Source: a virus
Lineage: Duplodnaviria > Heunggongvirae > Uroviricota > Caudoviricetes
DNA: 49,914 nt
Strand: one strand, 5' to 3'
Virus record (IMG/VR): IMGVR_UViG_2802429222_000003
Shown: positions 1,212-39,005 of the stretch, piece by piece
How the letters are laid out: each line of letters begins with the position of its first letter
How positions within the stretch are numbered: position 1 is the stretch's first letter
Notes under the pieces: model-generated
Told to the model about the DNA's origin: nothing
Seen by the model: the letters and a program-made list of their open reading frames with translations, nothing else
Databases searched by the model: none
Made by a program: the position numbers and the translations under genes

Positions 1212-1376
1212 TTACATGTTCTTGATGATCGCATCACCAAACTCTGAACATTTCAGCAGCTTAGCGCCTTCCATCAGACGTTCGAAGTCATAGGTTACGG
1301 TCTTAGCGTTAATTGCGCCTTCCATACCTTTAACAATCAGGTCTGCGGCTTCAGTCCAGCCCATATGGCGCAGCAG
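1212..1376 (-). pseudogene. icd: isocitrate dehydrogenase 3' fragment (54 codons + stop), icdC-like att-site duplication
   Basis: minus-strand translation [54 protein letters not shown] matches the recalled Icd C-terminus; similarity stops abruptly at about 1376, upstream is AT-rich non-icd sequence. Confidence 0.75.
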
Positions 1377-1914: not shown

Positions 1915-2868
1915 ATGCGGGCGAAACTTCTGGGAATAGTCCTGACAACCCCTATTGCGATCAACTCTTTTGCTTCTACCGAGACTTTATCGTTTACTCC
2001 TGACAACATAAATGCGGACATTAGTCTTGGAACTCTGAGCGGAAAAACAAAAGAGCGTGTTTATCTAGCCGAAGAAGGAAGCCGAAAAGTCAGTCAACTT
2101 GACTGGAAATTCAATAACGCTGCAATTATTAAAGGTGCAATTAATTGGGATTTGATGCCTCAGATATCTATCGGGGCTGCTGGTTGGACAACACTCGGCA
2201 GCCGAGGTGGCAATATGGTCGATCAGGACTGGATGGATTCCAGTAACCCCGGAACCTGGACGGATGAAAGTAGACATCCTGATACACAACTCAATTATGC
2301 CAACGAATTTGATCTGAATATCAAAGGCTGGCTCCTCAACGAACCCAATTACCGCCTGGGACTCATGGCCGGATATCAGGAAAGCCGTTATAGCTTTACA
2401 GCCAGAGGTGGTTCCTATATCTACAGTTCTGAGGAGGGATTCAGAGATGATATCGGCTCCTTCCCGAATGGAGAAAGAGCAATCGGCTACAAACAACGTT
2501 TTAAAATGCCCTACATTGGCTTGACTGGAAGTTATCGTTATGAAGATTTTGAGCTAGGTGGCACATTTAAATACAGCGGCTGGGTGGAATCATCTGATAA
2601 CGATGAACACTATGACCCGGGAAAAAGAATCACTTATCGCAGTAAGGTCAAAGACCAAAATTACTATTCTGTTGCAGTCAATGCAGGTTATTACGTCACA
2701 CCTAACGCAAAAGTTTATGTTGAAGGCGCATGGAATCGGGTTACGAATAAAAAAGGTAATACTTCACTTTATGATCACAATAATAACACTTCAGACTACA
2801 GCAAAAATGGAGCAGGCATAGAAAACTATAACTTCATCACTACTGCTGGTCTTAAGTACACATTTTAA
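1915..2868 (+). CDS. ompT: outer membrane protease OmpT (omptin), 317 aa
   Basis: full-length match to recalled E. coli OmpT sequence (MRAKLLGIVLTTPIAI...AGLKYTF). Confidence 0.95.
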   Translation: MRAKLLGIVLTTPIAINSFASTETLSFTPDNINADISLGTLSGKTKERVYLAEEGSRKVSQLDWKFNNAAIIKGAINWDLMPQISIGAAGWTTLGSRGGNMVDQDWMDSSNPGTWTDESRHPDTQLNYANEFDLNIKGWLLNEPNYRLGLMAGYQESRYSFTARGGSYIYSSEEGFRDDIGSFPNGERAIGYKQRFKMPYIGLTGSYRYEDFELGGTFKYSGWVESSDNDEHYDPGKRITYRSKVKDQNYYSVAVNAGYYVTPNAKVYVEGAWNRVTNKKGNTSLYDHNNNTSDYSKNGAGIENYNFITTAGLKYTF

Positions 2869-3117: not shown

Positions 3118-3867
3118 TCAGTCAATTGTTTTGTTTATTCCATCTGTGACGCCGATTATTTTCTCAAAATAATGAGATGGCGTGACACCATAATAATCTT
3201 TAAATGCACATATGAAATATGAAGTACTGTTATAGCCACATTTCTGGGCTACGACATTGATAGAATAAGAGTTTGAAGTTATGAGTTTTTTTGCATACCT
3301 CATCCTAGTATCTCTCAATATTTCAGTAAATGACGTTCCTTCATCCCTTAATCTTTTTTTTATTAAACTTTCACTCGTATAAATCAATTCCGCAATATCT
3401 TTTAAATGCCATTGCCGCTCAATATTAAAACTGATTATTCCAGTAATTTTACAGGTAAATGTATTTATATTTGTTAGTATAAATGAATTTACACTTTCGC
3501 GTTTTTTGAACATGGCAAGTAAGGATATACATAGTCTTTCTTTTAACCAAAGGGAGTGTGAGTCTGCTATTTTAATCCCTTCAAACAGAGAAAAAACAAG
3601 CGATAATGGAGGTTCCTCTTCAGCAATATAGCCATTCTTATCAAGAGTAAATTTGCCAGGCAACTCATTATTCACGTCGATAAAAAAGGATAAACATGTT
3701 TTCTTATCTATATCAACAATTCTTAGTTTAGAGGGGCATACTGGTAACTCTCTTCTAATTTTGTCGCTTACAATAAACAATGAATTTTTTTTGAACGAGA
3801 TAACTCTCCTGTTTATAATTAAATCAAATGATTGACAGATGAAAACTACGGAGCAAACATAATCCAT
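3118..3867 (-). CDS. appY: AraC-family transcriptional activator AppY, 249 aa
   Basis: matches recalled AppY sequence and length; adjacent to ompT as in the K-12 DLP12 region; C-terminal AraC HTH. Confidence 0.9.
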
Positions 3868-4543
3868 CTTGCACCTATCATAAAATTAAAACAAGTTGAT
3901 AGTAGTCAAATAACAACCAATTAAATACACAATCATAATCAGGATGATGTGCATTTATATTTTTATACACAAAATTATAGTTTGCAAATTTTAATAAATT
4001 TCATTTAAGATTAAATTATTATATGTATATTGTTTTTTATTCTAACGTATTTCAAAGTTACATTTTTTCAACGATTACTATGCTTTTTATTAACATAAAC
4101 TCACTACAACGCACCTGAAACCTCTTGCTATATATATGTCAACCGTTTGAATTTAAAATAAAAAGAGTATCATTTTTACTTGCATTTCTTATCAAGTCAC
4201 ATTCAACAACAGTAAAAAAACATTATTAGAACCATTCAATTAACAAAAAACCAACATTCAGCTTGCTTAATTTTTCTTTATTAAACGATATTGAAAATCA
4301 ATTGATAAAATACATCTAAACAACCTTTTGGGGCGCAAAAGCATAACATCAAACAAACAAATAACACACCGAAAAAACTCACAATTAATAACCTATGATA
4401 TACATACTGTTTATTATGGTTGAATAAGCCACTCGATATCTGGTGCTACGGAAGTGTCCACACGGTTTAGCAACACCCGATACTTTTTCCTGGCTTCCAG
4501 CAACGGGGTTTCTTCCTCCGTTGCATATACAGCTCACCTTTTT

Positions 4544-4837
4544 TCACCCACGATTAACCAACAGCCAGACCAGCAGACACGCCACCACCGGCACAGCAAA
4601 ATCCATCAGGCTTGCCACATCCCAAGCTCGCGGATCAAAACCGCCCCACCACGGCATATTCATACGCTTGCCATGTCCGAACATTTCAATCCAGCGATAT
4701 TCTGCCTGGGTGTGTTCACGCGCAATGAAGAACGTACAACCAGCTATCGCTCCGTAAGCCCAGTTTCCGGTAAAAAGACCAACCAGTATCTGCGCAGCCA
4801 CAGCACAAAGTGCATGAAGTAAGGGGCTTATATCCAT
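4544..4837 (-). CDS. small membrane protein with two predicted transmembrane helices (97 aa)
   Basis: AGGAGG 7 nt upstream of ATG; hydrophobic N- and C-terminal segments; 12 nt after the preceding gene. Confidence 0.55.
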   Translation of the reverse strand: MDISPLLHALCAVAAQILVGLFTGNWAYGAIAGCTFFIAREHTQAEYRWIEMFGHGKRMNMPWWGGFDPRAWDVASLMDFAVPVVACLLVWLLVNRG

Positions 4838-4849
4838 TATTTCCTCCTT

Positions 4850-5128
4850 TCAGCTCCATTCCCGAAGCGGTGTTTCCAGCTCCACGACATAATCAGAGAA
4901 TACAGAAACATCAAACAAGTCATCAAGAATGCGAATGTTGACAAAATAACCGTCATTCCGGATACAGACAGGTTCTCCCTCTTCAGTTACCCCTGTTTCT
5001 GTGTAGGTGAAACCAATTTCATCGACTAACAGTTTATTCTGGAGGTCTTCATCTTCCTCCCAGTCAAGAGATGACAGGAAGGATTTAAACTCTCTGTTTC
5101 CAGGAAATTTCAAAGTTAAATCTTTCAT
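4850..5128 (-). CDS. small acidic protein coupled to the side tail fibre (92 aa); possible fibre assembly factor
   Basis: ATGA start/stop overlap with stf, GGAGG ribosome-binding site; no resemblance to classical Tfa. Confidence 0.5.
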   Translation of the reverse strand: MKDLTLKFPGNREFKSFLSSLDWEEDEDLQNKLLVDEIGFTYTETGVTEEGEPVCIRNDGYFVNIRILDDLFDVSVFSDYVVELETPLREWS

Positions 5129-7146
5129 ACTGCCTCCTTGATTTGCCTGTCATTTAATTCTTTAAACCAGACTCTGAAATTTCTGATGTGTCCAAACAAA
5201 TGACGCGTTCCTGCTGCGGTCTGCCCACCAAACCGGTACGATGTTGCTGTAACTCCAAATATTTTACCATTAAGGTTTGTTGTATAATTACCATTGCATA
5301 TTGCATTTACTGATAAATCAGATTTAGCTCTCACACCCACAATGAACCTTTCTCCATCTGAGGCAATTTGTGGCTGAACCATTCCTACGTTGGCGCTTAT
5401 CTTTCCTGTTGAAACAAACCCCAGCGATAAATAATTATCATCAATACTGTGCCCTCCAACATCAAATATCCTTGGCGCAACATTGGGCGGTGTACTCCAG
5501 TTCCTGCTTACTTCGCACAATACCGTAAAAGGCCGTGTTGACAGGTTATTCTGCGATGGGATAGTAACCACATCACTTGCGCGTGTTGTTGGCATTGTAG
5601 TTACAATAAATGACGATGCCGTATTGCCCAGTTCAATTTGCGGCGTCGTCATGGTTAATGTTGAGTCATCATAGAATGGCTCATTACTTATTTTATTTGT
5701 CATATAAAAAGCACAGTTAACGGTATCAATGTCCGTATTAGCTGTATAAGTGGCCTCATAGTAGGTCCACTCGCCCTGTTGTTCAGCTTTGGCTGTTATA
5801 AGGGATGTATTACCGCTTACTGTTGCGATCCGGGTATCCAGATCAAGATAAGAGTCAGCAGAGAAGGTATCTGTTCCACCAATAATAACTGAAACTCTTA
5901 ACCTGCATCGTGCTTTAGCGCCTTTAACCCGGCACGAAAAAGTGAAACATTCACCACTTGCCAGCGGGAATCTGTCTGCTGCAACCACACCATGCACAGT
6001 ATAGCCACCTGTTGTTCCCACTATACTTTCCGTGGGTGTCACCGTGGCATAATTGAACCCCTGTTTATCAGTGCCAAATGTTTTATTCAGTGCGGAATGA
6101 ACAGTCCATGAGTCTGGTTTATTTGAGTTCCTCAGATAATTTGTCCTCTGTCCTTCAATCAATAAGCCATCGCGCTCAAATCGCGGTTCATCAACTTCAG
6201 CAAGCTTGAGTTGGCCGGACTTATTAATATACGTTGCTGTTGAAGCACGTTTAAACTTAACAATCTTGTCGCCTGGCATTGTTATTTCATCGTCACCAAT
6301 AACAATCTTTTTATATGATGGCGAAAACCCCGTAATCATATCCAGTGTATCGTTAAACGGTATCCATACATCAGGCAGCGGCGGCACTATATTCGCATAG
6401 GGCTCTGCAGTCACTTCCGCTGCGGCTTCTGCGCGGTCTGCCGCCTTTTCTGCTCGTGTCGCTGCCGACAGAGCCTCATCCTTTTTCTGCCCGGCCTTTG
6501 TTGCGTCTGCTGCGGCCTCCCGCGCTTTTGTGGTGGCGATTCCGGCATTTTCAGCGGCTGACTCTGCATTACGGCGGGAAGCCTCTTCACTGTCTGCGGA
6601 GGCTTCCTCTGACGCACGGGCATTTGTCTCTGAATGTTCTGCCGCTGTTGCTGCATTTTGTGCGGCTGTTTTTGAAGAAGCTGCCGCTTTCGCGCTGTTA
6701 CCTGCATTCGTCTCTGATGTTTTCGCCGCGTTCCTGGACGATGCCGCTGCTGTTTCTGATTTCTTTGCTGCCGCTGCGCTCTGAGAGGCGGCTTCAGCGT
6801 TGCGTGCCGCCTCTTCCACCATCTTTTCAAAACGATACAGTGCCTCCGGACGAACATCATCTTCTGTTGCAGCGCCCAGAAAATCATTCAATGTCCCCGG
6901 CTTAGAATCCTCATACACGGTGATGGTCCCGGCATGTGAAGGCGGAAAACCTTCAACCAGCAGGGCGACGCTGTACTGGCCATACTCAACATCCATGCTG
7001 TAACGTCCGGCTTCATCCGGATTTTCTGAGGCCACCGTGTTCACCACAACTGTGGTGCTGTTACGTTTTGCTTTGAGCTGAATGGTGCAGTTCTGTATCG
7101 GTTTTCCTGCACCGTCTTTCAGCACACCTGAAATCTGTACTGCCAT
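5125..7146 (-). CDS. stf: side tail fibre protein, lambda Stf-like N-terminus with divergent distal domain
   Basis: N-terminus MAVQISGVLKDGAGKPIQNCTIQLKA... resembles lambda Stf; Ala/Ser/Glu-rich repeat region; ATG at 7146 with GGAG 6 nt upstream (track start 7152 is GTG). Confidence 0.8.
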   Translation of the reverse strand: MAVQISGVLKDGAGKPIQNCTIQLKAKRNSTTVVVNTVASENPDEAGRYSMDVEYGQYSVALLVEGFPPSHAGTITVYEDSKPGTLNDFLGAATEDDVRPEALYRFEKMVEEAARNAEAASQSAAAAKKSETAAASSRNAAKTSETNAGNSAKAAASSKTAAQNAATAAEHSETNARASEEASADSEEASRRNAESAAENAGIATTKAREAAADATKAGQKKDEALSAATRAEKAADRAEAAAEVTAEPYANIVPPLPDVWIPFNDTLDMITGFSPSYKKIVIGDDEITMPGDKIVKFKRASTATYINKSGQLKLAEVDEPRFERDGLLIEGQRTNYLRNSNKPDSWTVHSALNKTFGTDKQGFNYATVTPTESIVGTTGGYTVHGVVAADRFPLASGECFTFSCRVKGAKARCRLRVSVIIGGTDTFSADSYLDLDTRIATVSGNTSLITAKAEQQGEWTYYEATYTANTDIDTVNCAFYMTNKISNEPFYDDSTLTMTTPQIELGNTASSFIVTTMPTTRASDVVTIPSQNNLSTRPFTVLCEVSRNWSTPPNVAPRIFDVGGHSIDDNYLSLGFVSTGKISANVGMVQPQIASDGERFIVGVRAKSDLSVNAICNGNYTTNLNGKIFGVTATSYRFGGQTAAGTRHLFGHIRNFRVWFKELNDRQIKEAV

Positions 7147-7204
7147 ATTCACTCCACAAATAAAAAAGGCACCATTTCTGGTGCCCGAATTTGGGTTTTA
7201 AAAT

Positions 7205-10200
7205 TCAACTGATACTGATGCCGGCTGTTGATTTCTTCATCACGACAACAAGAAGGTCGCTGATACTGGTCGTTGGCGTCCAGTTATTTGCACCATATGA
7301 AGAAACATTGAAAGTCAGGGTGACATGGCCGTGTCCGGCAGGCATATCAATGACTGATGAAAATACCCTGCTGACATCCGTCGCGGGTTGCTGAAAGATT
7401 TCCTGTCCGTTCTTCAGCACCTGCAGCTTACAGGTTGAATACCAGTATGACTGTTGGTTGTTGCTGTTGAAGTTTTCATGCTTACCACCGCGAAACAGAA
7501 CGGGGGGGATTACTATCTGACGGTCAAAAGCCTGGTCATCGTACACCGTGACCGTTATTGTACCGCTGGCATAACTGCTATTTCTCGGAAAGGCTTTTCC
7601 CACCGTTTTAACAATATCGCCTTCAATCTGGTTGGCTGACAGTTTTCCCAGAATCCGGCAGTTCTGATTAATCGTGACATTGTTGAGCGTCCCGGAGTTC
7701 GCGTTCACGTTACCGCTGATATCCGCATTTTTCGCCGTCAGCCGCCCGTCCGGTGTCAGGGAAAATGCCGGAGGATTACCGCCGCTGGTAATGGTGGGAG
7801 CCGTCAGATATTTCAGGAACACTTCATTCATAAATATCTGATCGCCCTGACCAACAAACATCGGCTTTGTATTGCCATTCGCAGGATTAATCATCGCAAT
7901 CCTGTCCGCCGCCAGCAGCACCTGACTCTGCATACCGTCAGGGGTATTCTCAATACCGGCACCAATACCCGCGATATAAAGGCGTCCGTCCTGCATCTGC
8001 TGCAGCTTCACAGCCCACATGCTGTTCAGGTTATTATTTGTATCAACCTGAACCTTCTGTATCTGCTGGATCGCTGCACTCTGGTCTTCCAGTTTCTTAT
8101 TGACGGTCTGCGTGATTTCATTGCTGACATCCGTAATGGACGTCCTGATTTCAGCCAGGTCAGGCGCAAGCTGACCGTTATCAATCTGCGTCCACAACTC
8201 CTGAGCCAGATGGGTTTTCCCTATCTCTCCTTTGAAAAAATCCAGATAGCCGGATGCATCATCACTCGGCTGGCCAACAGCCTCCACAAATGCCGATTTG
8301 CCAACGGTGTTCACACTGCGAATGTAAAAATAATAATCATGGCCCGGTTTGATATTGATACTAGCGGCTATCCAGTACAGCGCCGTACCAAGATAACGCG
8401 CGCTGGCTTCAACCTGCCTGATATCCGCAATCCGCTTTTCCGAGAACCAGAACTCAAACTGTACCGTCGGATCATAAACGGCAAGATGCGGCGTTGCGGT
8501 TATCTGAAAATAGCCCGGCGTCAGCTCAATCCGCGATGGCGCTGCCGGTGCGGCAATCCGGAACGATACCGACGCCGGATCCCCCTGCTGCCCCCACGCA
8601 TTTACCGCCCGGACTGTCAGCCTGTAGTTCCCCAGCGCCAGTTGCCTGAAGCGGTATGTGGTTTCCGTCGTCCTGGCCGTGCTGACCAGCCGCTCACTGC
8701 CGTCATCCGCTGCCACGGTCAGGCGAAGCATAAAGCTCCCCCCCTTCACCACCTTCGGCGTGTCCCAGCGCGCCAGCACCTGGTATTCCCCGCTGTCTGC
8801 GGTGACTTCTGCAGTCAGGTGCTGCACCGCGGGCGGCGTGACACCGTTCACCGTTCCGCTCTGGTCGCCGTCAAAGTACGCCCCGTTATCCACGATGGCT
8901 TCTTTCTCCGGTACATGCTGCACGGCAGTGATGGCATACGTGCCGTCATCGTTCTCACGGATACTCACACAGCGGAACAGGCGCTGGCGCAGCATCGGCA
9001 GCTTCAGCCCCCACACGCTGTATCCGGCAACGCCGTCAGGAACACGGCTCACTTTCACCTTCACACCGTCGGTGACGGACTGGACCTCCACGCTGACCGG
9101 ATTCCCCTGCCCGTCAACCAGGCTTATCAGCGTGGTGCCGGAGGATGGCAGCGTGATTTCACGGTCGAGCGTCAGCGTCCGGGTCTGGCTGTTCACCGCC
9201 AGCACACGCCCACCGATGCTGATACCGGCATAGTCATCATCGCAGATTTCAATGACATCCCCCGGTACATGGCGAAGCCCTTCAGCACCCACGCTGAAGT
9301 CCACGGTCTGCGTTTCCAGCAGCTCCGTTTTAATCAGCCACAGCCCGGCGCGGTGTGCCTGCCCCCGACTGGTACAGCCAAAGGCATCCATCTTCGTGAC
9401 GTTACGGCCGTAACGGGCAATGGCCTGCGTATCCTCCACGAGCTCTGTCGCCGTCTCCCAGCCGTTGTTCGGGTCAATCCAGTTCACCTCAACGGCATTA
9501 TGGCGGTCCTTCAGGGCGCTGAAGCTGTAGCGGAACGGCGCGCCATCATCCGGCATCACCACATTACTGCGGTTATAGGTCCACACCTTATCTGATGGTC
9601 GGTCCTGCACGAACGTCAGCGTCTGCCCGTTCCATACCGGCATACAGCGCATCGCCGAGCAGAAATCACTGAGCACATCCCACGCCTTGCGCTGTGTGGT
9701 CAGGTACGCATTACAGGTGATGCGCGGCTCCGTGCCGCCAAAGCCGTCCGGCACTGACTGGTCGCAGTACTGGCCGATGACATACAGCGCCCATTTATCC
9801 ACATCCGCCGCACCAAGACGTTTCCCCATGCCGTAGCGCGGATGGGTCAGCATATCCCACAGACACCAGGCCATGTTGTTGCTGTATGCCGGTTTAAACG
9901 TTCCGTCCCAGATACCGCTGTATTGCCGCGTCTGCGGGTTATAATTCGACGGCACCTGCAGAATACGCCCGCGCAGATGATAATTACGGCTCACCTGCTG
10001 ACTGCCGAACTGCTCCGAGTCCACCTGCACGCCGACCAGTGCCGTGTTCGGGTAGCACTGTTTCACATCGATAATTTCGGTGTATGACGACCAGAGCGTT
10101 TTGTTCTGCAGCTGGTCTGTGGTGCTGTCCGGCGTCATCCTGCGCATCCGGATACTGAACGGGCGCGGCGGCAGGTTATCCACCACCACCGAGGCCAGAT

Positions 10201-10687
10201 ACTGTGAAGTGGTTTTACCCTTAATGGTGATGTCTTTTTCCGTCACCCAGCCACCGTTACGTTGTATCTGAACCAGCAGGCGGACTTCCGATGGATTCCT
10301 GTCCCCCTTTGAGGTGGTTTCCACCAGTGCCTGCACGCCGAAAGTAAAACGCAGACGGTCAATGTTTGCCGACGTGATGGTCCGGGTGATCGGCGTGTCA
10401 TATTTCACTTCTGTACCGAGCACCGTCTCGGAGCCGGAGGATTCAAATCCCTCCGGCGGTGTCTGCTCCTGCTCACCGGCCCGGAACACCACCGTGACGC
10501 CGGATATATTGGTATTCCCCTCACTGTCCAGCACCGGCGTACTGTTCAGCAGCACGCTTTTTAATCCATCCACCGGACCTTCAACCGGCCCTTCGCTGAT
10601 GGCATCGATCACACTCAGCAGCTGCGTGGACTTCAGGTTGTCCTTCGCTTCGCGCGGGATATGCCCCTTACTGCTGCCTTTACCCAT
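7205..10687 (-). CDS. J: tail tip / host specificity protein J (1160 aa)
   Basis: lambda J-like over most of its length; last ~150 residues divergent from recalled lambda J. Confidence 0.93.
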
Positions 10688-25999: not shown

Positions 26000-26260
26000 T
26001 GTTCATTCCACGGACAAAAACAGAGAAAGGAAACGACAGAGGCCCAAAAGTTCGTTTTCAGCACCTGTCGTTTCCTTTCTTTTCAGGGGGTATTTTAAAT
26101 AAAAACATTAAGTTACGACGAAGAAGAACGGAAACGCCTTAAACCGGAAAATTTTCATAAATAGCGAAAACCCGCGAGGTCGCCGCCCCGTAACCTGTCG
26201 GATCGCCGGAAAGGACCCGCAAAATGATAATAATTATCATCTACATGTCACAACGTGCAT
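26000..26260 (-). other. cos packaging site: cosN 12-nt cohesive-end sequence at 26177..26188 with cosB to the left and cosQ side to the right
   Basis: plus strand AGGTCGCCGCCC is the reverse complement of lambda GGGCGGCGACCT; flanks match recalled lambda left- and right-end sequences. Confidence 0.9.
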
Positions 26261-26387
26261 CTACGCCATCAAACCACGTCAAATAATCAATTATGACGCA
26301 GGTATCGTATTAATTGATCTGCATCAACTTAACGTAAAAACAACTTCAGACAATACAAATCAGCGACACTGAATACAGGGCAACCTC

Positions 26388-26621
26388 ATGTCAACGAAGA
26401 ACAGAACCCGCAGAACAACAACCCGCAACATCCGCTTTCCTAACCAAATGATTGAACAAATTAACATCGCTCTTGTTCAAAAAGGGTCCGGGAATTTCTC
26501 AGCCTGGGTCATTGAAGCCTGCCGCCGGAGACTGTGCTCAGAAAAAAGAGTTTCGCCTGAAGCAAACAAAGAAAAGAGTGACATTACTGAATTGCTCAGA
26601 AAACAGGTCAGACCAGATTGA
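26388..26621 (+). CDS. small basic protein with ribbon-helix-helix-like core (77 aa)
   Basis: RNIRFPNQMIEQINIALVQKGSGNFSAWVIEACRRRL resembles the RHH (CopG/Arc) pattern. Confidence 0.5.
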   Translation: MSTKNRTRRTTTRNIRFPNQMIEQINIALVQKGSGNFSAWVIEACRRRLCSEKRVSPEANKEKSDITELLRKQVRPD

Positions 26622-26663
26622 AGCAATTTAGATAATCGTGCAGACTACGCCCCATCATATCAC

Positions 26664-27089
26664 ATGGAAGGTACTACAATGGCTCAGGTTGCCATTTTTA
26701 AACAAATATTCGATAAAGTGCGAAATAATTTAAACTATCACTGGTTTTATTCTGAACTAAAACGTCACAATGTCTCACATTACATTTACTATTTAGCCAC
26801 AGAGAATATTCATCTTGTTCTTGAAAACGATAATACGGTTTTAATAAAAGGACAGGGTAAGGTTGTAAATGTAAGATTTTCAAAAAATAAATGCCTTATA
26901 GAAGCCACCTTAAAAGGATTCAAATCAGGAGAGTTATCATTTTACGAATACAGGAAAAATCTTGCTACAGCAGGGGTTTTCAGATGGATTACAAATATCC
27001 ACGAAAACAAAAGGTATTACTATACCTTTGATAATTCATTACTATTTACTGAGAACATTCAGAACACTACACAAATATTTCCGCACTAA
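26664..27089 (+). CDS. DUF1398-type protein, YbcV-like (141 aa)
   Basis: resembles recalled DLP12 YbcV ([12 protein letters not shown]...[10 protein letters not shown]...[13 protein letters not shown]); true start may be the internal Met at 26679. Confidence 0.6.
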
Positions 27090-29816: not shown

Positions 29817-30004
29817 AGCCTCACCTCCGCAAATAACGGATGGTGTACACGGTTCGGAACGAAGAGGAAAGGTATAGAAGTTACATTAGCGTAAGGCTTG
29901 AACATCTATTCAAAAAGAAAAACGCCAGCGATTATTCTGGCGTAGCTGAAAGCATCATACAATTATCAAATACGAAAATTACAAAATCATTAAAACGCAT
30001 CACG

Positions 30005-30745
30005 TTACATCATGTCTTTTTCTAAAAAAAATCTTGATGAATATTGATGGGGAGGAACACCAAAATATCTTCTGAAAACACTTACAAAATATGACGTGTT
30101 TTCATAACCGCATATCTCAGCAACTTTTCCAACAGAATATAAATTGTAGCTTAATAACCTTTCCGCCATCACCATTCGCTCTTCAAGAATTAATTTACTA
30201 AATGATAAGCCTTCGTGCTTTAATTTTCTTTTTAACAGACTTTCACTCAGATACAGTCTTGAAGATATATCACAAAGTCTCCATGTTGCAGATATATCCG
30301 TGTGAATAATAGCCTTAACTTTACTTCCTAAACTATTAAGACATCCAAATAAAAAACTTTGCACTATTTTCTCTGAAGATAAGATAGCAAGACATGCAAG
30401 TGATATTTGATTTCTAACAAAATCCACAGTTCTGCCATCACAATTCAAGCATGCAATCAAGTTCTTTAACAATGAAAAATCTTCACATTCCACCATCAAG
30501 TATGCCGGATAAAACCTTCTTACAGAAAAAGGTGAGAGTGTGTTGCTTTTAAAGAAATCATTAACTGTTTTCTCTTCAACATCTACGATCATTACATGAT
30601 CTATATTTGATGAAAAAAAATCTTTTAAATTGTAATCAATGAGAACAGCACTTCCTTTTTTAAACAAAATATCTTCTTTACCAATTCGGACATCAAACGA
30701 GTTCAACACCAAAATGATAGAACATATGTATGGCATATTATCCAC
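30005..30745 (-). CDS. AraC-family regulator, AppY/EnvY-like paralog (246 aa)
   Basis: about 40-45% identity by eye to AppY at 3118..3867 across both the N-terminal and HTH regions. Confidence 0.8.
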   Translation of the reverse strand: MDNMPYICSIILVLNSFDVRIGKEDILFKKGSAVLIDYNLKDFFSSNIDHVMIVDVEEKTVNDFFKSNTLSPFSVRRFYPAYLMVECEDFSLLKNLIACLNCDGRTVDFVRNQISLACLAILSSEKIVQSFLFGCLNSLGSKVKAIIHTDISATWRLCDISSRLYLSESLLKRKLKHEGLSFSKLILEERMVMAERLLSYNLYSVGKVAEICGYENTSYFVSVFRRYFGVPPHQYSSRFFLEKDMM

Positions 30746-31087
30746 CTGATATCATTGGGGTTACACCAGGTAAGTATAGGTGGAAAATCAATATTCGCCA
30801 GTTCAACAATAAGGAAAATCTCATTGCATCACAAGTATAAAATTATGTATTTAACTCACAAAGACAAATTATTAAACCAATCTGTTATATTATATATAGC
30901 TGCGTGGAATCATAATATCATATATTTTGACTGGCATGTTTACCAAATTTAAGTTGCATCTCAATGGTTTCTTCAGCGTAAACAGAGTTTTTATACAAAC
31001 TGACACTCTGGGTATCATAGTGTAGTTTTTACGATTGTAAATATCCTGTATGCAGGAACTCATCCTTTTGGATGATATCGCATACAA

Positions 31088-34787: not shown

Positions 34788-35001
34788 GCTTCACCTCCGC
34801 AGAGGTCAAACGCTAGATGCAAAGAATTGCAGGTGCATTTCTGCATCTGTGAAGGGAGAAGAGAGTTTGGATTGTATGTGCGCATAAACGTCCCCGTTTA
34901 GCGCAGAAGTCACCGGAGTTGTTCAGGCTCCGGTGACATAATTATGCCGTGTTGATTTCCCAAAATCAAAATCGATAGAATTGCTCCTTCTTAAAACACT
35001 T

Positions 35002-35799
35002 TTACTCTCTGGAAGCTTTTCTTATCTCTCTTGGTGTTATATTAAAACGATTATGAAATCTTTCAGTAAAACGAGAAGGACACTTATAACCATTTTCTCT
35101 GGCAATCTCGCTTATAGGTTTTACCGTCGTTTGTATAGCAGACAACGCATTATTTAACCTCACATCGTCCAGTATACTTTGGAAACTTACCCCCTCGCTT
35201 GCTAGACGGCGATGTAATGTAGAAACAGAAATGTAGAGATATCGAGCAACCTTGTTTGCTGTCCATTTTGTGCCGGGTTCGGATAGCAGCAGGTTATAAC
35301 AACGACTTATCAATGATTGTTTACTATATGATAAAAGTAAATGATTAACATGATTCACTCCTAACGAAAGTAGAACGCCCATTGCTAAGTGCTCCTGAAT
35401 TTTAGTTGAGAAGCCTCGGGAAACAGATGTTTTTAGTTGCTCCCAACAATATATTAACTCAGGATTCTGAGGTAAAAAGAAACTTGTTTTGTTACGTATT
35501 TGATCAGTTACCGTATAAAGTTTTTGGAAACTCTCAATTAAATCAATGGGTAAGTAAAGCATTTCTGCAAGATAAAGCCCTGCTTCAGGATAATTCTCAA
35601 TATAAAATTCATAACCACAAGGAAATAATATTATTTGATTATTATCAACAGTTAAAGTATGCGTCTCCCAATTGATAACTTTCTTTCCCTGACGGATACG
35701 ACACAAAGCTGGCATAAGAGGCTTAACCCTATGAATCTCATGATGTTTATGCATCCGTATTTCTTCGATCTTTAAGTTAGTCTTACCTCTTGCCAGCAT
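35002..35799 (-). CDS. AraC-family regulator, YbcM-like (265 aa)
   Basis: C-terminal AraC HTH; AT-rich cargo block. Confidence 0.8.
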
Positions 35800-35808
35800 A
35801 CTCTCACC

Positions 35809-36360
35809 CTACTTTATCTCATAAACTGGTGTTATCTCAGCGGTTGCGATTTTATTAGCATTAAGCATATAACCAACTAACGCTCCGCTGGAGTTAGAAT
35901 CTACAGGAATCTTTTCAGTTTTTAGAGCCCATACTTTAAACTGGTAATGATGTGGTTTATCTCCTTTAGGAGGACATGCGCCACCAAACCCAGCATAGCC
36001 AAAATCATTTCGGCCTTGAACAGCACCAGTCGGCAGTTTTGTTCCATCACGTCTCCCTGCATCAACGGGCAAATATGTTATTGTTGCTGGAATATTAACA
36101 ACAGTCCAATGCCACCAACCACTGCCTGTAGGTGCATCTGGATCATATACAGTTACGGCAAAGCTTTTGGTACCTTCAGGAACACCAGACCAGGTTAATG
36201 AGGGCGATGTATTACCACCTTCACACCCAAATCCAGAAAAGACATGAGACGTTGTAAGTTGCTCTCCTGTTTTTATTTCATTACTAGTGACCTGAAATGC
36301 TGCAGCCTGCGCAGAAAATGTTATGAATGCCAATACAGTTGAAACGATAAGTGTTTTCAT
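35809..36360 (-). CDS. PEBP-family periplasmic protein, YbcL-like (183 aa)
   Basis: signal peptide; PEBP signatures DPDAP and HHY. Confidence 0.85.
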   Translation of the reverse strand: MKTLIVSTVLAFITFSAQAAAFQVTSNEIKTGEQLTTSHVFSGFGCEGGNTSPSLTWSGVPEGTKSFAVTVYDPDAPTGSGWWHWTVVNIPATITYLPVDAGRRDGTKLPTGAVQGRNDFGYAGFGGACPPKGDKPHHYQFKVWALKTEKIPVDSNSSGALVGYMLNANKIATAEITPVYEIK

Positions 36361-36577
36361 AAAAACCTCTTTGTTATGACCTATCGTTATTTTATTTGAT
36401 ATTCCTTTATCTCATTATGCATAAAGGCGCAATGTTTATGCAAAAGCAATCACAATTGTACCCCCAACCCAATTATTTGCCACAATATACACAAAGCACA
36501 TTGATACTATCTAAAAACTCTGCTTTATTATTAGTAATACCTACGAAAGTCGGTGTTATTTTTTAACCTACCATTCA

Positions 36578-36625
36578 AAATACGTGACATACACCATTTT
36601 GCTCATAATAATTTGTCACGTATTT
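36578..36625. repeat. perfect 12-bp inverted repeat AAATACGTGACA / TGTCACGTATTT with 24-bp spacer
   Basis: read directly at 36578..36589 and 36614..36625, between the recombinase and PEBP genes. Confidence 0.85.
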
Positions 36626-36824
36626 TCAGTATTTGAATCTGCGACCAAGAGTTCTCACCTAACAAATGATTAAGATTGTATAGCTCATTTACTACCCCAA
36701 TACAGCCGTACAAAACTCGCTTGTGGGAGCAAACAAAGTAATTACCCATTAAGTTTCGTCAAAGATAATTAATTCTGTCTTGCACTTTATCACCATAGCA
36801 TAACTTAAAATCCGAGATCATTAT

Positions 36825-38351
36825 TTAGAAATAAATCTCACCATCAACCATATATTTGAGAGCACTTATCGCCTGCTGGGCGGATATTACTTTCATTAAA
36901 GGATAGTGTTTAAAAACAATGCCATTCATAAAATAGATATCACAGGTTTTATTATCCGTATTAATTATGATTTTTTCGAATGTTTTATAGGCAAGTGTAC
37001 GGCATAACTCTCGTCCATTTTTACTGGTTAAGTCAATAGCATAAAAATCACTGAATGAATTTACACCTTTACTCTTCAAAGTTTTCAATGATACCGAAGC
37101 CCTTCGTAATTCCTTATCTAATAGTCTTATTTTCTCTGCTATAGCGGTAACTTCAGGCGCGACAGACAATGCAACGATTAAATTATTAATTTTCATCTGA
37201 AGCTCAATAATTTTTAACTCTAAAGTTTCATTAGCATCTTTCTTGTTTTCAACTGGTTGAATTTTGCTACAATTAAAAAGCAATTCATTAATGATATTAT
37301 AATCAACCAAATCTCTTTTTATTGATGGCCTGTCACATCGATGTAATCTTCTCATCGGACAAACATAATAGCCATGCAAACTTCCAGATACCGCATGAAC
37401 AATCATGGTATTACCACAAGCCTCACACTTCATAACTGTTCGAAGTAGATTTATTAGCATAGGATTCTTGCTACTATTGCTAATACCAAAAGGTGCCAAC
37501 CGAATTTCCTGTACAGCGTAAAACAAATCATCTGATATGACTCTGGGATAATAGCCAGCGATTTCACTTATCCCTTTCCCTCTTGCACGATATGAAGGTA
37601 CGCATATACCTATCAGAGCTTTATTCGCTAATAATTTTTCAATTACAGAAGGTCCCCATGCACTTTCTTTTCCTGAGAAATTCTTTACAGCATGATCATT
37701 TAAATACTTGGCTATTGCATTCAATGAGCGCCTTTCCATCCTGAGTTTAAAAATTAGCTCAATAGTTTTCACCCTGTCGGGGTCTGGAACAAAAGCCGTT
37801 CTTTTGTCATCTAAGGAGAGCCATCTCGGACAAGACGCCGTCATAATCGTACCTGATTCCAGTGCATCCTGCCGTTTTTTCTTCCATGATAATTTAACCC
37901 GACTTGACTTTATCTCGCTTTCTTCATTTGCCCTTTGTGCTATAAGTATGGCTTTTATTAATGAATATGGCTCATTCAAAGAGTCAATATTATAGACTGT
38001 ATTGTCGCAAAGAGTTATAACATCAATACCGTGATTCAAAATCAATTTCAGACGTTCAATCGCTTCACCGACTTTTTCTCTTGAAAGTCTGTCCAGACTT
38101 TCAACTAACAATGTAGTTCCTGGCAATATATAACCATGCTCTATAGCATCTAAAAATTCCGAAAAAGCTCCTGATTGTGCATGCTTTCCTTTGAATGCAC
38201 TTAATCCTAAATCTTCATATGTTATGGTATCAAGATAATAATCACTATTTACCTTTAACCATTCAGCAATAAGTCTTCTCTGTCGGTTTAATGAGTCACC
38301 AGACATCTGACCTGGTGATGAAAATCGCATATATGCTATGGCTTTTTTCAT
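36825..38351 (-). CDS. large serine recombinase, YbcK-like (508 aa)
   Basis: N-terminal resolvase-type domain (YMRFSSPGQ), C-terminal Cys cluster CEACGN...YYVCPMRRLHRC. Confidence 0.8.
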   Translation of the reverse strand: MKKAIAYMRFSSPGQMSGDSLNRQRRLIAEWLKVNSDYYLDTITYEDLGLSAFKGKHAQSGAFSEFLDAIEHGYILPGTTLLVESLDRLSREKVGEAIERLKLILNHGIDVITLCDNTVYNIDSLNEPYSLIKAILIAQRANEESEIKSSRVKLSWKKKRQDALESGTIMTASCPRWLSLDDKRTAFVPDPDRVKTIELIFKLRMERRSLNAIAKYLNDHAVKNFSGKESAWGPSVIEKLLANKALIGICVPSYRARGKGISEIAGYYPRVISDDLFYAVQEIRLAPFGISNSSKNPMLINLLRTVMKCEACGNTMIVHAVSGSLHGYYVCPMRRLHRCDRPSIKRDLVDYNIINELLFNCSKIQPVENKKDANETLELKIIELQMKINNLIVALSVAPEVTAIAEKIRLLDKELRRASVSLKTLKSKGVNSFSDFYAIDLTSKNGRELCRTLAYKTFEKIIINTDNKTCDIYFMNGIVFKHYPLMKVISAQQAISALKYMVDGEIYF

Positions 38352-38605
38352 GGTGACACCTGCTAACGTATGCTTTTATAAACCTTAGTGGTGGGATATA
38401 ATTTTTGTTTAATTTTTATTTAAAAAGACAATTAAGGTCACATTATCTTGAATATACAACAATAATCGTATTGCAATTTTCTTACGCCATAATCTTGAAA
38501 GCACAAAAGAATACATAAAAAATAAAGACATTAACAAAAAGCATAAAACGAGGCTCATATAAATATAAGAGCCTCCATATTTTAGTCGTTTAGAAACAAA
38601 TTATT

Positions 38606-38938
38606 TTAATGTGGTGTGCTTCGTGACAATAAATTAATAACCAACACACCGGCACAAATCAACATCATGCCTATAATGGCTGGCAGGTCCAGCCGTTGGC
38701 CGAAAAGTCCCCATGACAGTAAGCTAATCAGGACAATACCGACTCCTGACCAGATAGCATAAGCAATCCCTGTAGGAATATAAGCCAGCGTCTGAGCTAA
38801 TAACCAGAATGATGCACAATAACAAATAATTGTACCAACAGATGGCCATAACCGTGTAAAACCTTCTGAAAACTTCATTAAGGTTGTACCAATGACCTCT
38901 GCAAGTATTGCACCACCAAGATAAATATAAGGGTTCAT
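38606..38938 (-). CDS. emrE: small multidrug resistance efflux transporter EmrE (110 aa)
   Basis: from the internal Met the product MNPYIYLGGAILAEVIGTTLMKFSEGF... matches recalled EmrE; track ORF has an 18-codon extension. Confidence 0.9.
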   Translation of the reverse strand: MNPYIYLGGAILAEVIGTTLMKFSEGFTRLWPSVGTIICYCASFWLLAQTLAYIPTGIAYAIWSGVGIVLISLLSWGLFGQRLDLPAIIGMMLICAGVLVINLLSRSTPH

Positions 38939-39005
38939 AGCATATTCTTTCCTGTTCAAACTGGAGAGAATTGTACTACAGTTTGAACTCAACTCACCTG
39001 TTTCA

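Follow-up and report, generated by a model that had tools for sequence, protein, structure and literature searches.

In lambda, the side tail fibre Stf (orf-401/orf-314) is encoded after the central fibre gene J and is accompanied by Tfa (orf-194). In phage 21, 1H12, the Lambda_ev* phages and PhiR47_2 the order is J, terminator, stf, an overlapping 92-amino acid (aa) open reading frame (ORF) and a 97-aa ORF. The last three are annotated in the phage 21 record OL657228 as side tail fiber (CPT_21_22), hypothetical protein (CPT_21_23) and putative membrane protein (CPT_21_24). The same order was found on the minus strand of a 49,914-nucleotide Caudoviricetes DNA (IMG/VR record IMGVR_UViG_2802429222_000003, the whole of which is referred to as the window), where ORFs were called for a 673-aa Stf (5125-7146), a 92-aa acidic and presumably cytoplasmic protein (p92, 4850-5128) and a 97-aa membrane protein (p97, 4544-4837). 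The locus is a known and widespread phage-21-type side-tail-fibre module of lambdoid phages.

The module was read as the end of a phage-21-like late operon that encodes a glycan-binding Stf, a p92 that acts on the fibre and a p97 that acts at the cell envelope, a combined reading to which a probability of about 0.6 was assigned. The N-terminus of Stf would dock on the tail tip as in lambda, and the Ala-rich shaft would project a distal module that binds surface polysaccharide (O-antigen, lipopolysaccharide core or capsule) in reversible primary adsorption. Host specificity would come from a core of ~300 aa that is swapped between alleles via conserved flanking joints. Synthesis of p92 in step with the fibre would be secured by ATGA coupling, and the protein would act on the C-terminal lectin end. 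p97 would be an inner-membrane protein whose family is chromosomal in some Proteobacteria and has repeatedly been placed by phages after genes for glycan-targeting receptor-binding proteins (RBPs).

The 2.8-kb region was 99.1-99.2% identical over 97-98% of its length in 12 isolated phages (Lambda_ev*, 1H12, PhiR47_2), the Stf itself being 99% identical to that of PhiR47_2, 1H12 and Lambda_ev*. Identity to classical phage 21 was 93%, in two blocks. The module, counted where at least 80% of the region was present, was found in 513 of 5426 complete E. coli genomes. All three proteins matched PHROG families: Stf phrog_1419 (8.4e-294, labelled tail protein), p92 phrog_1361 (1.4e-39, residues 1-91 of 92) and p97 phrog_1443 (2.4e-58, residues 1-96 of 97), the last two both labelled 'unknown function'. 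An earlier reading made from the letters and ORF translations alone (the sequence-only reading) had proposed a new fibre tip; with a 99% identical copy in 12 phages and a homologue in phage 21, the tip is not new. As a standard fibre module already present in cultured phages and in hundreds of genomes, the sequence feature is in itself of little weight. No publication was found on accessions WP_000355360, WP_000654172, UMO75438 and UMO75439 or on the phage 21 side tail fiber, and the literature yielded no functional test of p92 or p97.

The stf ORF reaches 7152 from an in-frame GTG; the ATG at 7146 gives the start MAVQISG, the same as in lambda and phage 21. Residues 1-130 (6757..7146, minus strand) form a lambda-type N-terminal tail-docking domain, matched by PF08400 at 2.3e-68 (228.8 bits, cut-off 26.6). 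Residues 3-96 matched the lambda Stf fragment in PDB 9e7m chain Ta at 1.6e-49, and identity to lambda orf-401 was 85% over 110 aa. The following Ala-rich repeat shaft (residues 111-255, 6382..6816, minus strand) contains 37% Ala and 11% Ser, is 53% identical to residues 239-345 in the repeat region of orf-401, and would form a trimeric coiled coil. The ~420 aa beyond the shaft (residues ~255-673) are unrelated to the T4-gp37-like tip of lambda, with no significant similarity to lambda orf-314 (best E 0.23). A profile search with Peptidase_S74 (PF13884) gave no match in Stf, and PADLOC gave none for Stf, p92 or p97. The locus thus resembles the lambda Stf-Tfa locus in its docking domain, its Ala/Ser shaft, its location after J and a tfa 3' end, and differs from it in the distal module and in the absence of lom and of a complete tfa gene. 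The lambda-like N-terminus, the Ala/Ser-rich repeats and a distal domain different from that of lambda had all been noted in the sequence-only reading and were borne out; its figure of ~300 aa is too small for the whole distal part and fits the core that varies against phage 21.

Two domains were recognised in the distal module. The first (residues ~329-523, 5578..6162, minus strand) is of the head-spike-fibre type of the Rhodobacter capsulatus gene transfer agent (RcGTA), a jelly-roll or carbohydrate-binding-module-like domain. It was matched by NF048003 GTA_spike_fiber over residues 331-525 with 66.8 bits (cut-off 36) and weakly by CBM_4_9. A profile of eight diverged homologues of the distal module (profile A4) matched the sequence of the RcGTA protein Rcc01080 (PDB 6tb9) at 2.8e-25. 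The second domain (residues ~524-670, 5137..5577, minus strand) is probably a ConA/LamG-like lectin domain, matched below the gathering score by the full Laminin_G_3 profile (PF13385, positions 4-151 of 151), and it ends in the conserved motif RHLFGHIRNFRxW..KELxDxQ.

Rcc01080 (GhsB; PDB 6tb9, 6tba, 6tsu, 6tui) shares the first of these domains in its residues 45-281. Bárdy et al. (PMC7296036) described it as a flexible fibre of one subunit by which RcGTA particles adhere to the polysaccharide capsule. Unlike Stf it is a single-subunit head decoration, is anchored by an N-terminal (I/L)-G repeat and has no LamG domain. Only its first ~ten residues (2-10) are resolved in the structure, so that it provides no structural template (PMC7296036).

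Counterparts of the distal module were found in virulent siphoviruses. In IrisVonRoten (Tequintavirus, Gp22-Gp23-Gp24), JenP1 (Nonagvirus, gp23-gp24-gp25) and Dhillonvirus the first fibre carries a homologous distal module (42-46% identity) with a shared lectin-like C-terminus, followed by an overlapping gene for a 92-aa p92 homologue (47-57% identity). These loci differ from the module described here in three respects: the fibres have N-terminal anchors suited to their own tails instead of the lambda-type anchor, a second fibre follows p92 (with an S74 domain where checked, in JenP1 and T5_ev219), and p97 is absent from the fibre locus of JenP1 and T5_ev219. The C-terminus of the IrisVonRoten proximal fibre Gp22 forms a protruding 'galectin-like' domain that may be an additional receptor-binding domain (PMC11990801), and the lateral fibres of these siphoviruses are regarded by the BASEL authors as O-antigen binders (PMC8594841). 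The proximal fibre is called Gp22 in a figure legend of the former paper and Gp23 in its text (PMC11990801). LtfA/LtfB of DT57C were also considered as a precedent and were set aside as a loose analogy only, having S74 chaperone domains and a different anchor (LtfC).

From the homologies to the RcGTA head-spike fibre, to LamG-like lectins and to IrisVonRoten Gp22, the distal module of Stf is most likely a glycan-binding tip. Two points weigh against this assignment. The Laminin_G_3 match to Stf scored 21.6 bits, below the gathering score of 27.6, and the best 120 of 2494 distal-module homologues were 99-100% identical, too uniform for modelling the structure of the module. Laminin_G_3 was matched in seven of the eight diverged homologues, and in the Chelativorans homologue the score (39.2 bits) was above the cut-off.

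The joints of the mosaic were mapped by blastn against lambda and against phage 21 (L001). DNA homology to lambda covers the first ~120 stf codons (7163-6797) and returns only at 4525-4428 (85.7%), in a remnant of the last 36 codons of tfa (4417-4524, minus strand; tblastn with lambda Tfa residues 156-191, 80.6% protein identity, E 1.4e-12). Since lambda homology ends within stf and resumes only at the 3' end of tfa, a cassette of distal stf, p92 and p97 has replaced the distal stf and most of the tfa of a lambda-like ancestor, and the tfa remnant marks its right-hand joint. In E. coli C this remnant is annotated as a 'tail fiber assembly protein' (partial), and in phage ev243 it is located farther downstream. 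The sequence-only reading had correctly stated that no ~190-aa Tfa is present, and had missed the remnant; neither a complete tfa gene nor a lom gene was found in the module.

Against phage 21, DNA identity was 93% from J through Stf codon ~337 and 94% from the last ~37 Stf codons across p92 and p97 into the tfa scar. Between these flanks, over a tip core of ~300 aa (5236..6137, minus strand), similarity was undetectable at the DNA level. The corresponding protein identities were 98% for the N-terminal 130 aa of Stf, 42% for its C-terminal 420 aa, 92% for p92 and 100% for p97. Specificity alleles would thus now be exchanged via conserved joints inside stf, in agreement with the earlier proposal of a fibre mosaic with a lambda anchor and a horizontally swapped non-lambda tip. 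The downstream cargo differs too, being appY-ompT here and sitDCBA in phage 21, 1H12, Lambda_ev* and PhiR47_2.

The J homologue lies upstream of stf (7205-10687) and is 83% identical to lambda J. A terminator-like hairpin with an 8-bp stem (5 GC) followed by a T-run is present between J and stf (7167..7186, minus strand), at the spot where a terminator is annotated in phage 21. In a crude consensus scan of the minus strand, no promoter-like site was detected between stf and p97 and no terminator past p97. As there is no promoter-like site between stf and p97, the three genes look like the end of the late operon.

The ATG of p92 overlaps the stf stop codon as ATGA, with GGAGG 7 nt upstream of the p92 start; p97 starts 12 nt past the p92 stop and is preceded by AGGAGG. 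The p92 protein has an isoelectric point of 4.05 (22 D/E against 8 K/R), and its AlphaFold2 (AF2) model has a confident alpha+beta fold (pLDDT 90.4). The description of an acidic 92-aa ORF with an ATGA overlap and a GGAGG site was therefore accurate. p92 gave no match in Pfam, NCBIfam or PDB sequences (phmmer), and no similarity to lambda Tfa or to a known fibre chaperone was detected.

The small size of p92 and p97, the lack of Pfam and NCBIfam matches and the adjoining tfa scar could suggest that both are chance ORFs or decayed remnants of tfa. This explanation is refuted by the conservation data and was given practically no weight. Both proteins match PHROG profiles over their full length, both have confident AF2 folds, neither protein is similar to Tfa, and hundreds of homologues of the same length exist. 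The ratio of nonsynonymous to synonymous substitution rates (dN/dS) was 0.35-0.53 for p92 in close pairs and 0-0.27 for p97. In distant pairs the proportion of nonsynonymous differences (pN) was far below that of synonymous differences (pS) for both, with pN 0.25-0.33 and pS 0.70-0.94 for p92. Both genes are real; lack of conservation, which the sequence-only reading had named as the finding that would overturn it, was not observed.

In a collection of 5.8 billion proteins p92 formed 45 clusters, essentially all from Escherichia or Shigella. By tblastn it was found in 145 phage records, and in the rows inspected the match nearly always overlapped the 3' end of a tail fibre or tail protein gene. 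Virulent carriers include the Nonagvirus JenP1, Seuratvirus, Dhillonvirus and the T5-like T5_ev219 and IrisVonRoten, in which the homologue is Gp23 (MZ501075, 4001-4279 of the extracted locus L086), a 92-aa protein annotated 'tail fiber protein' whose role is passed over in the paper. Records labelled as Listeria phage or Campylobacter phage also contain homologues, which are 52-78% identical to the copies of T5-like coliphages; some of these records span only 1.8-7.5 kb, and they are probably mislabelled or contaminant T5-like contigs.

The p92 gene is directly downstream of the fibre gene and is co-inherited with it, as expected from its position for a chaperone. p92 is 92% identical to its phage 21 counterpart where the tips are only 42% identical, and it sits in the conserved flank, so that it is not tip-specific and appears to belong to the fibre type rather than to the tip allele. 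The dedicated chaperone proposed earlier is in this respect half upheld: coupling to the fibre type is seen across the 145 phage records, dedication to one tip is not, and similarity to a chaperone is lacking. On sequence grounds, p92 is most likely a folding or assembly factor, or a bound small subunit, that contacts the conserved lectin end of the fibre.

In JenP1, T5_ev219, IrisVonRoten, E. coli C and the Escherichia prophages L010 and L012, p92 is followed by a second fibre gene. Where these second fibres were checked, a common N-terminus and a Peptidase_S74 domain were seen in JenP1, T5_ev219 and L010, and the common N-terminus alone in L012. p92 might accordingly be an adaptor that docks a second, distal fibre on the proximal one, left over in the present module after loss of the branch fibre. 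It would dock the conserved N-terminus of the branch fibre (MVTKTVIPTDITxLK), which has an S74 chaperone domain of its own. The exact position of p92 between the proximal and second fibre genes in all six loci speaks for this explanation, and the T-shaped distal fibre attaches to the proximal fibre in a manner that the BASEL paper does not state (PMC11990801). In the present module and in phage 21, however, no second fibre gene follows p92, and p92 is intact and under purifying selection without one in phages 21, 1H12 and PhiR47_2 and in the 513 genomes. The residues of p92 that are invariant in alignment A2 (MKD..LKF, GY.VN, PLREW) also appear unchanged in JenP1 and T5_ev219, and thus look conserved whether or not a second fibre exists. 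The adaptor role was for these reasons considered unlikely, and a p92 that acts on the lectin end of the fibre was retained as the preferred reading.

A distant version of the arrangement occurs in Comamonas kerstersii (L016), where the gene for a ~390-aa homologue of the entire Stf distal module is followed by a 95-aa ORF and by p97, each pair overlapping as ATGA. Two further Comamonas loci (L029, L036) and a Pantoea locus (L025) show the same gene order with an ORF of 171-188 aa, at adjacent or overlapping coordinates. These ORFs, or their N-terminal domain, matched phrog_18574 at about 1e-11 (2.4e-11), and p92 matched it at 2.5e-5. p92 is tied to the Comamonas and Pantoea ORFs only transitively, via phrog_18574, with position and size in addition; direct hhalign comparison was weak (E 0.011-0.56), a point against the preferred reading. 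Published accounts have overlooked the 92-aa protein that consistently accompanies a lectin-tipped proximal fibre (IrisVonRoten Gp23, phage 21 gp23), and engineering or modelling of such fibres for host range probably needs p92 to be included.

The AF2 model of p97 (pLDDT 89.8) contains three helices (residues 4-23, 26-52 and 74-96). Hydropathy analysis gave two hydrophobic stretches (4-38 and 74-96) that flank a polar, aromatic-rich loop in which 7 of 35 residues are W, F or Y. The membrane protein with an AGGAGG site that the sequence-only reading had described was thus recovered, with three helices from two hydrophobic stretches in place of the two helices it had counted. In 26 diverse members 27 positions are invariant (alignment A1), concentrated in REHTQAEYRWI and MPWWGGFD, and identity between E. 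coli and Comamonas is 60%. The family comprises 577 clusters at 90% identity and 427 at 50%. The best 150 representatives were 58-146 aa long and included no fusion to a known domain; two apparent long ORFs in GC-rich genomes contained no relevant domain. A scan of GTDB species found p97 in Escherichia, Aeromonas, Comamonas, Leclercia, Pantoea, Sphingomonadales, Halomonas and Desulfovibrio. No match to Pfam, NCBIfam or PDB sequences (phmmer) and no similarity to a described exclusion or defence family was detected, and a BFVD fold search with the p97 model returned nothing at E <= 0.001.

Several phage contexts were seen for p97. In Leclercia it immediately follows the gene for an HP1/P2-type fibre that has an S74 domain, and on a Salmonella contig it is flanked by two genes for pectate-lyase tailspikes. 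In Comamonas it is encoded downstream of a giant J protein and, as in Pantoea, of p92-like ORFs, and in Chelativorans the gene directly before it encodes a lectin-type fibre. In Aeromonas rivipollensis (L005) it is chromosomal, in a non-phage setting between the genes for pirin and RIO1 kinase; the Aeromonas homologues (L005, L013-L020) are 56-63% identical. Pirin genes were upstream neighbours in three cases of the broader set of genomes too, and the Aeromonas gene may accordingly be cellular and inherited vertically. Other upstream neighbours were ligA (three cases), DAHP synthase (two) and single cases such as a PNPase-type gene, and chromosomal alphaproteobacterial copies were also seen.

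The probable site of action of p97 is the envelope of the infected or lysogenic cell, not the virion. Its conservation, its chromosomal copies and its late-operon coupling fit either a conserved envelope target or cargo of cellular origin. Two observations weigh against this reading. The topology of p97 was ambiguous, the charge distribution being indecisive, and the upstream neighbours are split between phage tail genes and ordinary chromosomal genes, so that p97 tends to adjoin receptor-binding genes but does not always do so.

In L016 (5551-8620), the ORFs downstream of p97 read from their translations as a holin-like membrane protein, an M15-peptidase-type endolysin and nested Rz/Rz1-like spanins, and a serine recombinase gene lies beyond them. 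If these ORFs are the holin, endolysin and spanins, p97 is not the holin.

Exclusion proteins encoded next to receptor-binding genes are known from siphoviruses (Cor, Llp of T5), and others act in the inner membrane (Imm of T4, SieA of P22, gp15 of HK97). p97 is likewise a small envelope protein encoded beside receptor-binding genes, and from this position it could, as the sequence-only reading had suggested for exclusion, be a superinfection-exclusion or receptor-masking protein that, made in the lysogen or late in infection, alters or blocks a conserved envelope step and so prevents adsorption or injection by phages with glycan-binding fibres or spares progeny from debris. It adjoins RBP genes in at least four architectures, all glycan-targeting (lectin-type Stf, S74-type fibre, pectate-lyase tailspikes, giant J), and its aromatic-rich loop is conserved. 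The fibre loci of JenP1 and T5_ev219, the virulent phages examined for it, lack p97, and E. coli C has retained it beside appY-ompT in a DLP12-type prophage that is decayed. On the other side, p97 differs from the named exclusion proteins in that it is not a lipoprotein, is far more conserved and taxonomically broader, and has non-phage chromosomal copies (next to pirin and RIO1 in Aeromonas, and next to pirin, ligA and other housekeeping genes elsewhere). The sequence is very strongly conserved whatever the host and the kind of RBP. The crude scan gave it no promoter of its own, and in Comamonas it is coupled to late genes by ATGA; it is apparently co-transcribed with the late fibre genes rather than expressed from a moron-type promoter. 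A Kuttervirus-sized Salmonella phage and jumbo phages of Aeromonas, all of them virulent, contain partial copies, and the PADLOC and Pfam searches gave no match. An exclusion or masking function is on balance improbable.

The chromosomal copies raise the further possibility that p97 is host-derived cargo with a housekeeping-type envelope function, carried in the recombination-prone region after the fibre genes. Its members are stand-alone proteins of 58-146 aa, many of them in ordinary chromosomal contexts, and the same region holds obvious cargo in related phages (sitDCBA in phage 21, appY-ompT here). The position of p97 is nevertheless tighter than random cargo would predict: in distant phages it comes immediately after a fibre or p92-like gene, often overlapping it, and ahead of cargo or lysis genes. 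Cargo is a tentative alternative, held to be doubtful. A version that combines the two, in which a family of cellular origin serves as a generic, RBP-independent exclusion or receptor-masking device whose aromatic loop acts on the assembly or display of envelope glycans, was thought quite improbable. If true, p97 would protect lysogens from related phages or keep progeny from being trapped on debris, and its frequent pairing with p92-like proteins would make the two genes an accessory unit of lectin-tipped fibres. Action of p97 at the envelope is retained as the preferred reading. As a broadly distributed unannotated family that tends to adjoin receptor-binding genes, p97 is a candidate for an envelope-level phage-host function that can be tested cheaply.

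The prophage as a whole resembles phage 21, with a 3' fragment of icd at 1212-1364 (minus strand) and, at the opposite end of the window, a gene for an integrase. Matching genomes annotated in RefSeq identify the AraC-type gene at 3118-3867 (minus strand) as appY and the gene at 1915-2868 (plus strand) as ompT. The two genes are the right-arm cargo of an icd-integrated lambdoid prophage and stand where phage 21 has sitDCBA. Only two complete genomes matched the icd junction, with 96% or 91% query coverage. The order p97, tfa remnant, appY, ompT also occurs at the DLP12 site of E. coli C (NZ_CP029371, L087 9856-13627), in a decayed DLP12-type prophage whose truncated J adjoins the gene for the terminase small subunit and which keeps an intact Stf (781 aa), p92 (93 aa), a second fibre (234 aa) and p97. 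Elsewhere in the prophage, low-GC islands were seen at ~26000-27000, 30000-31000 and 35000-39000 (31-39% GC, against ~55-60% in the structural genes), which are possibly cargo or defence genes.

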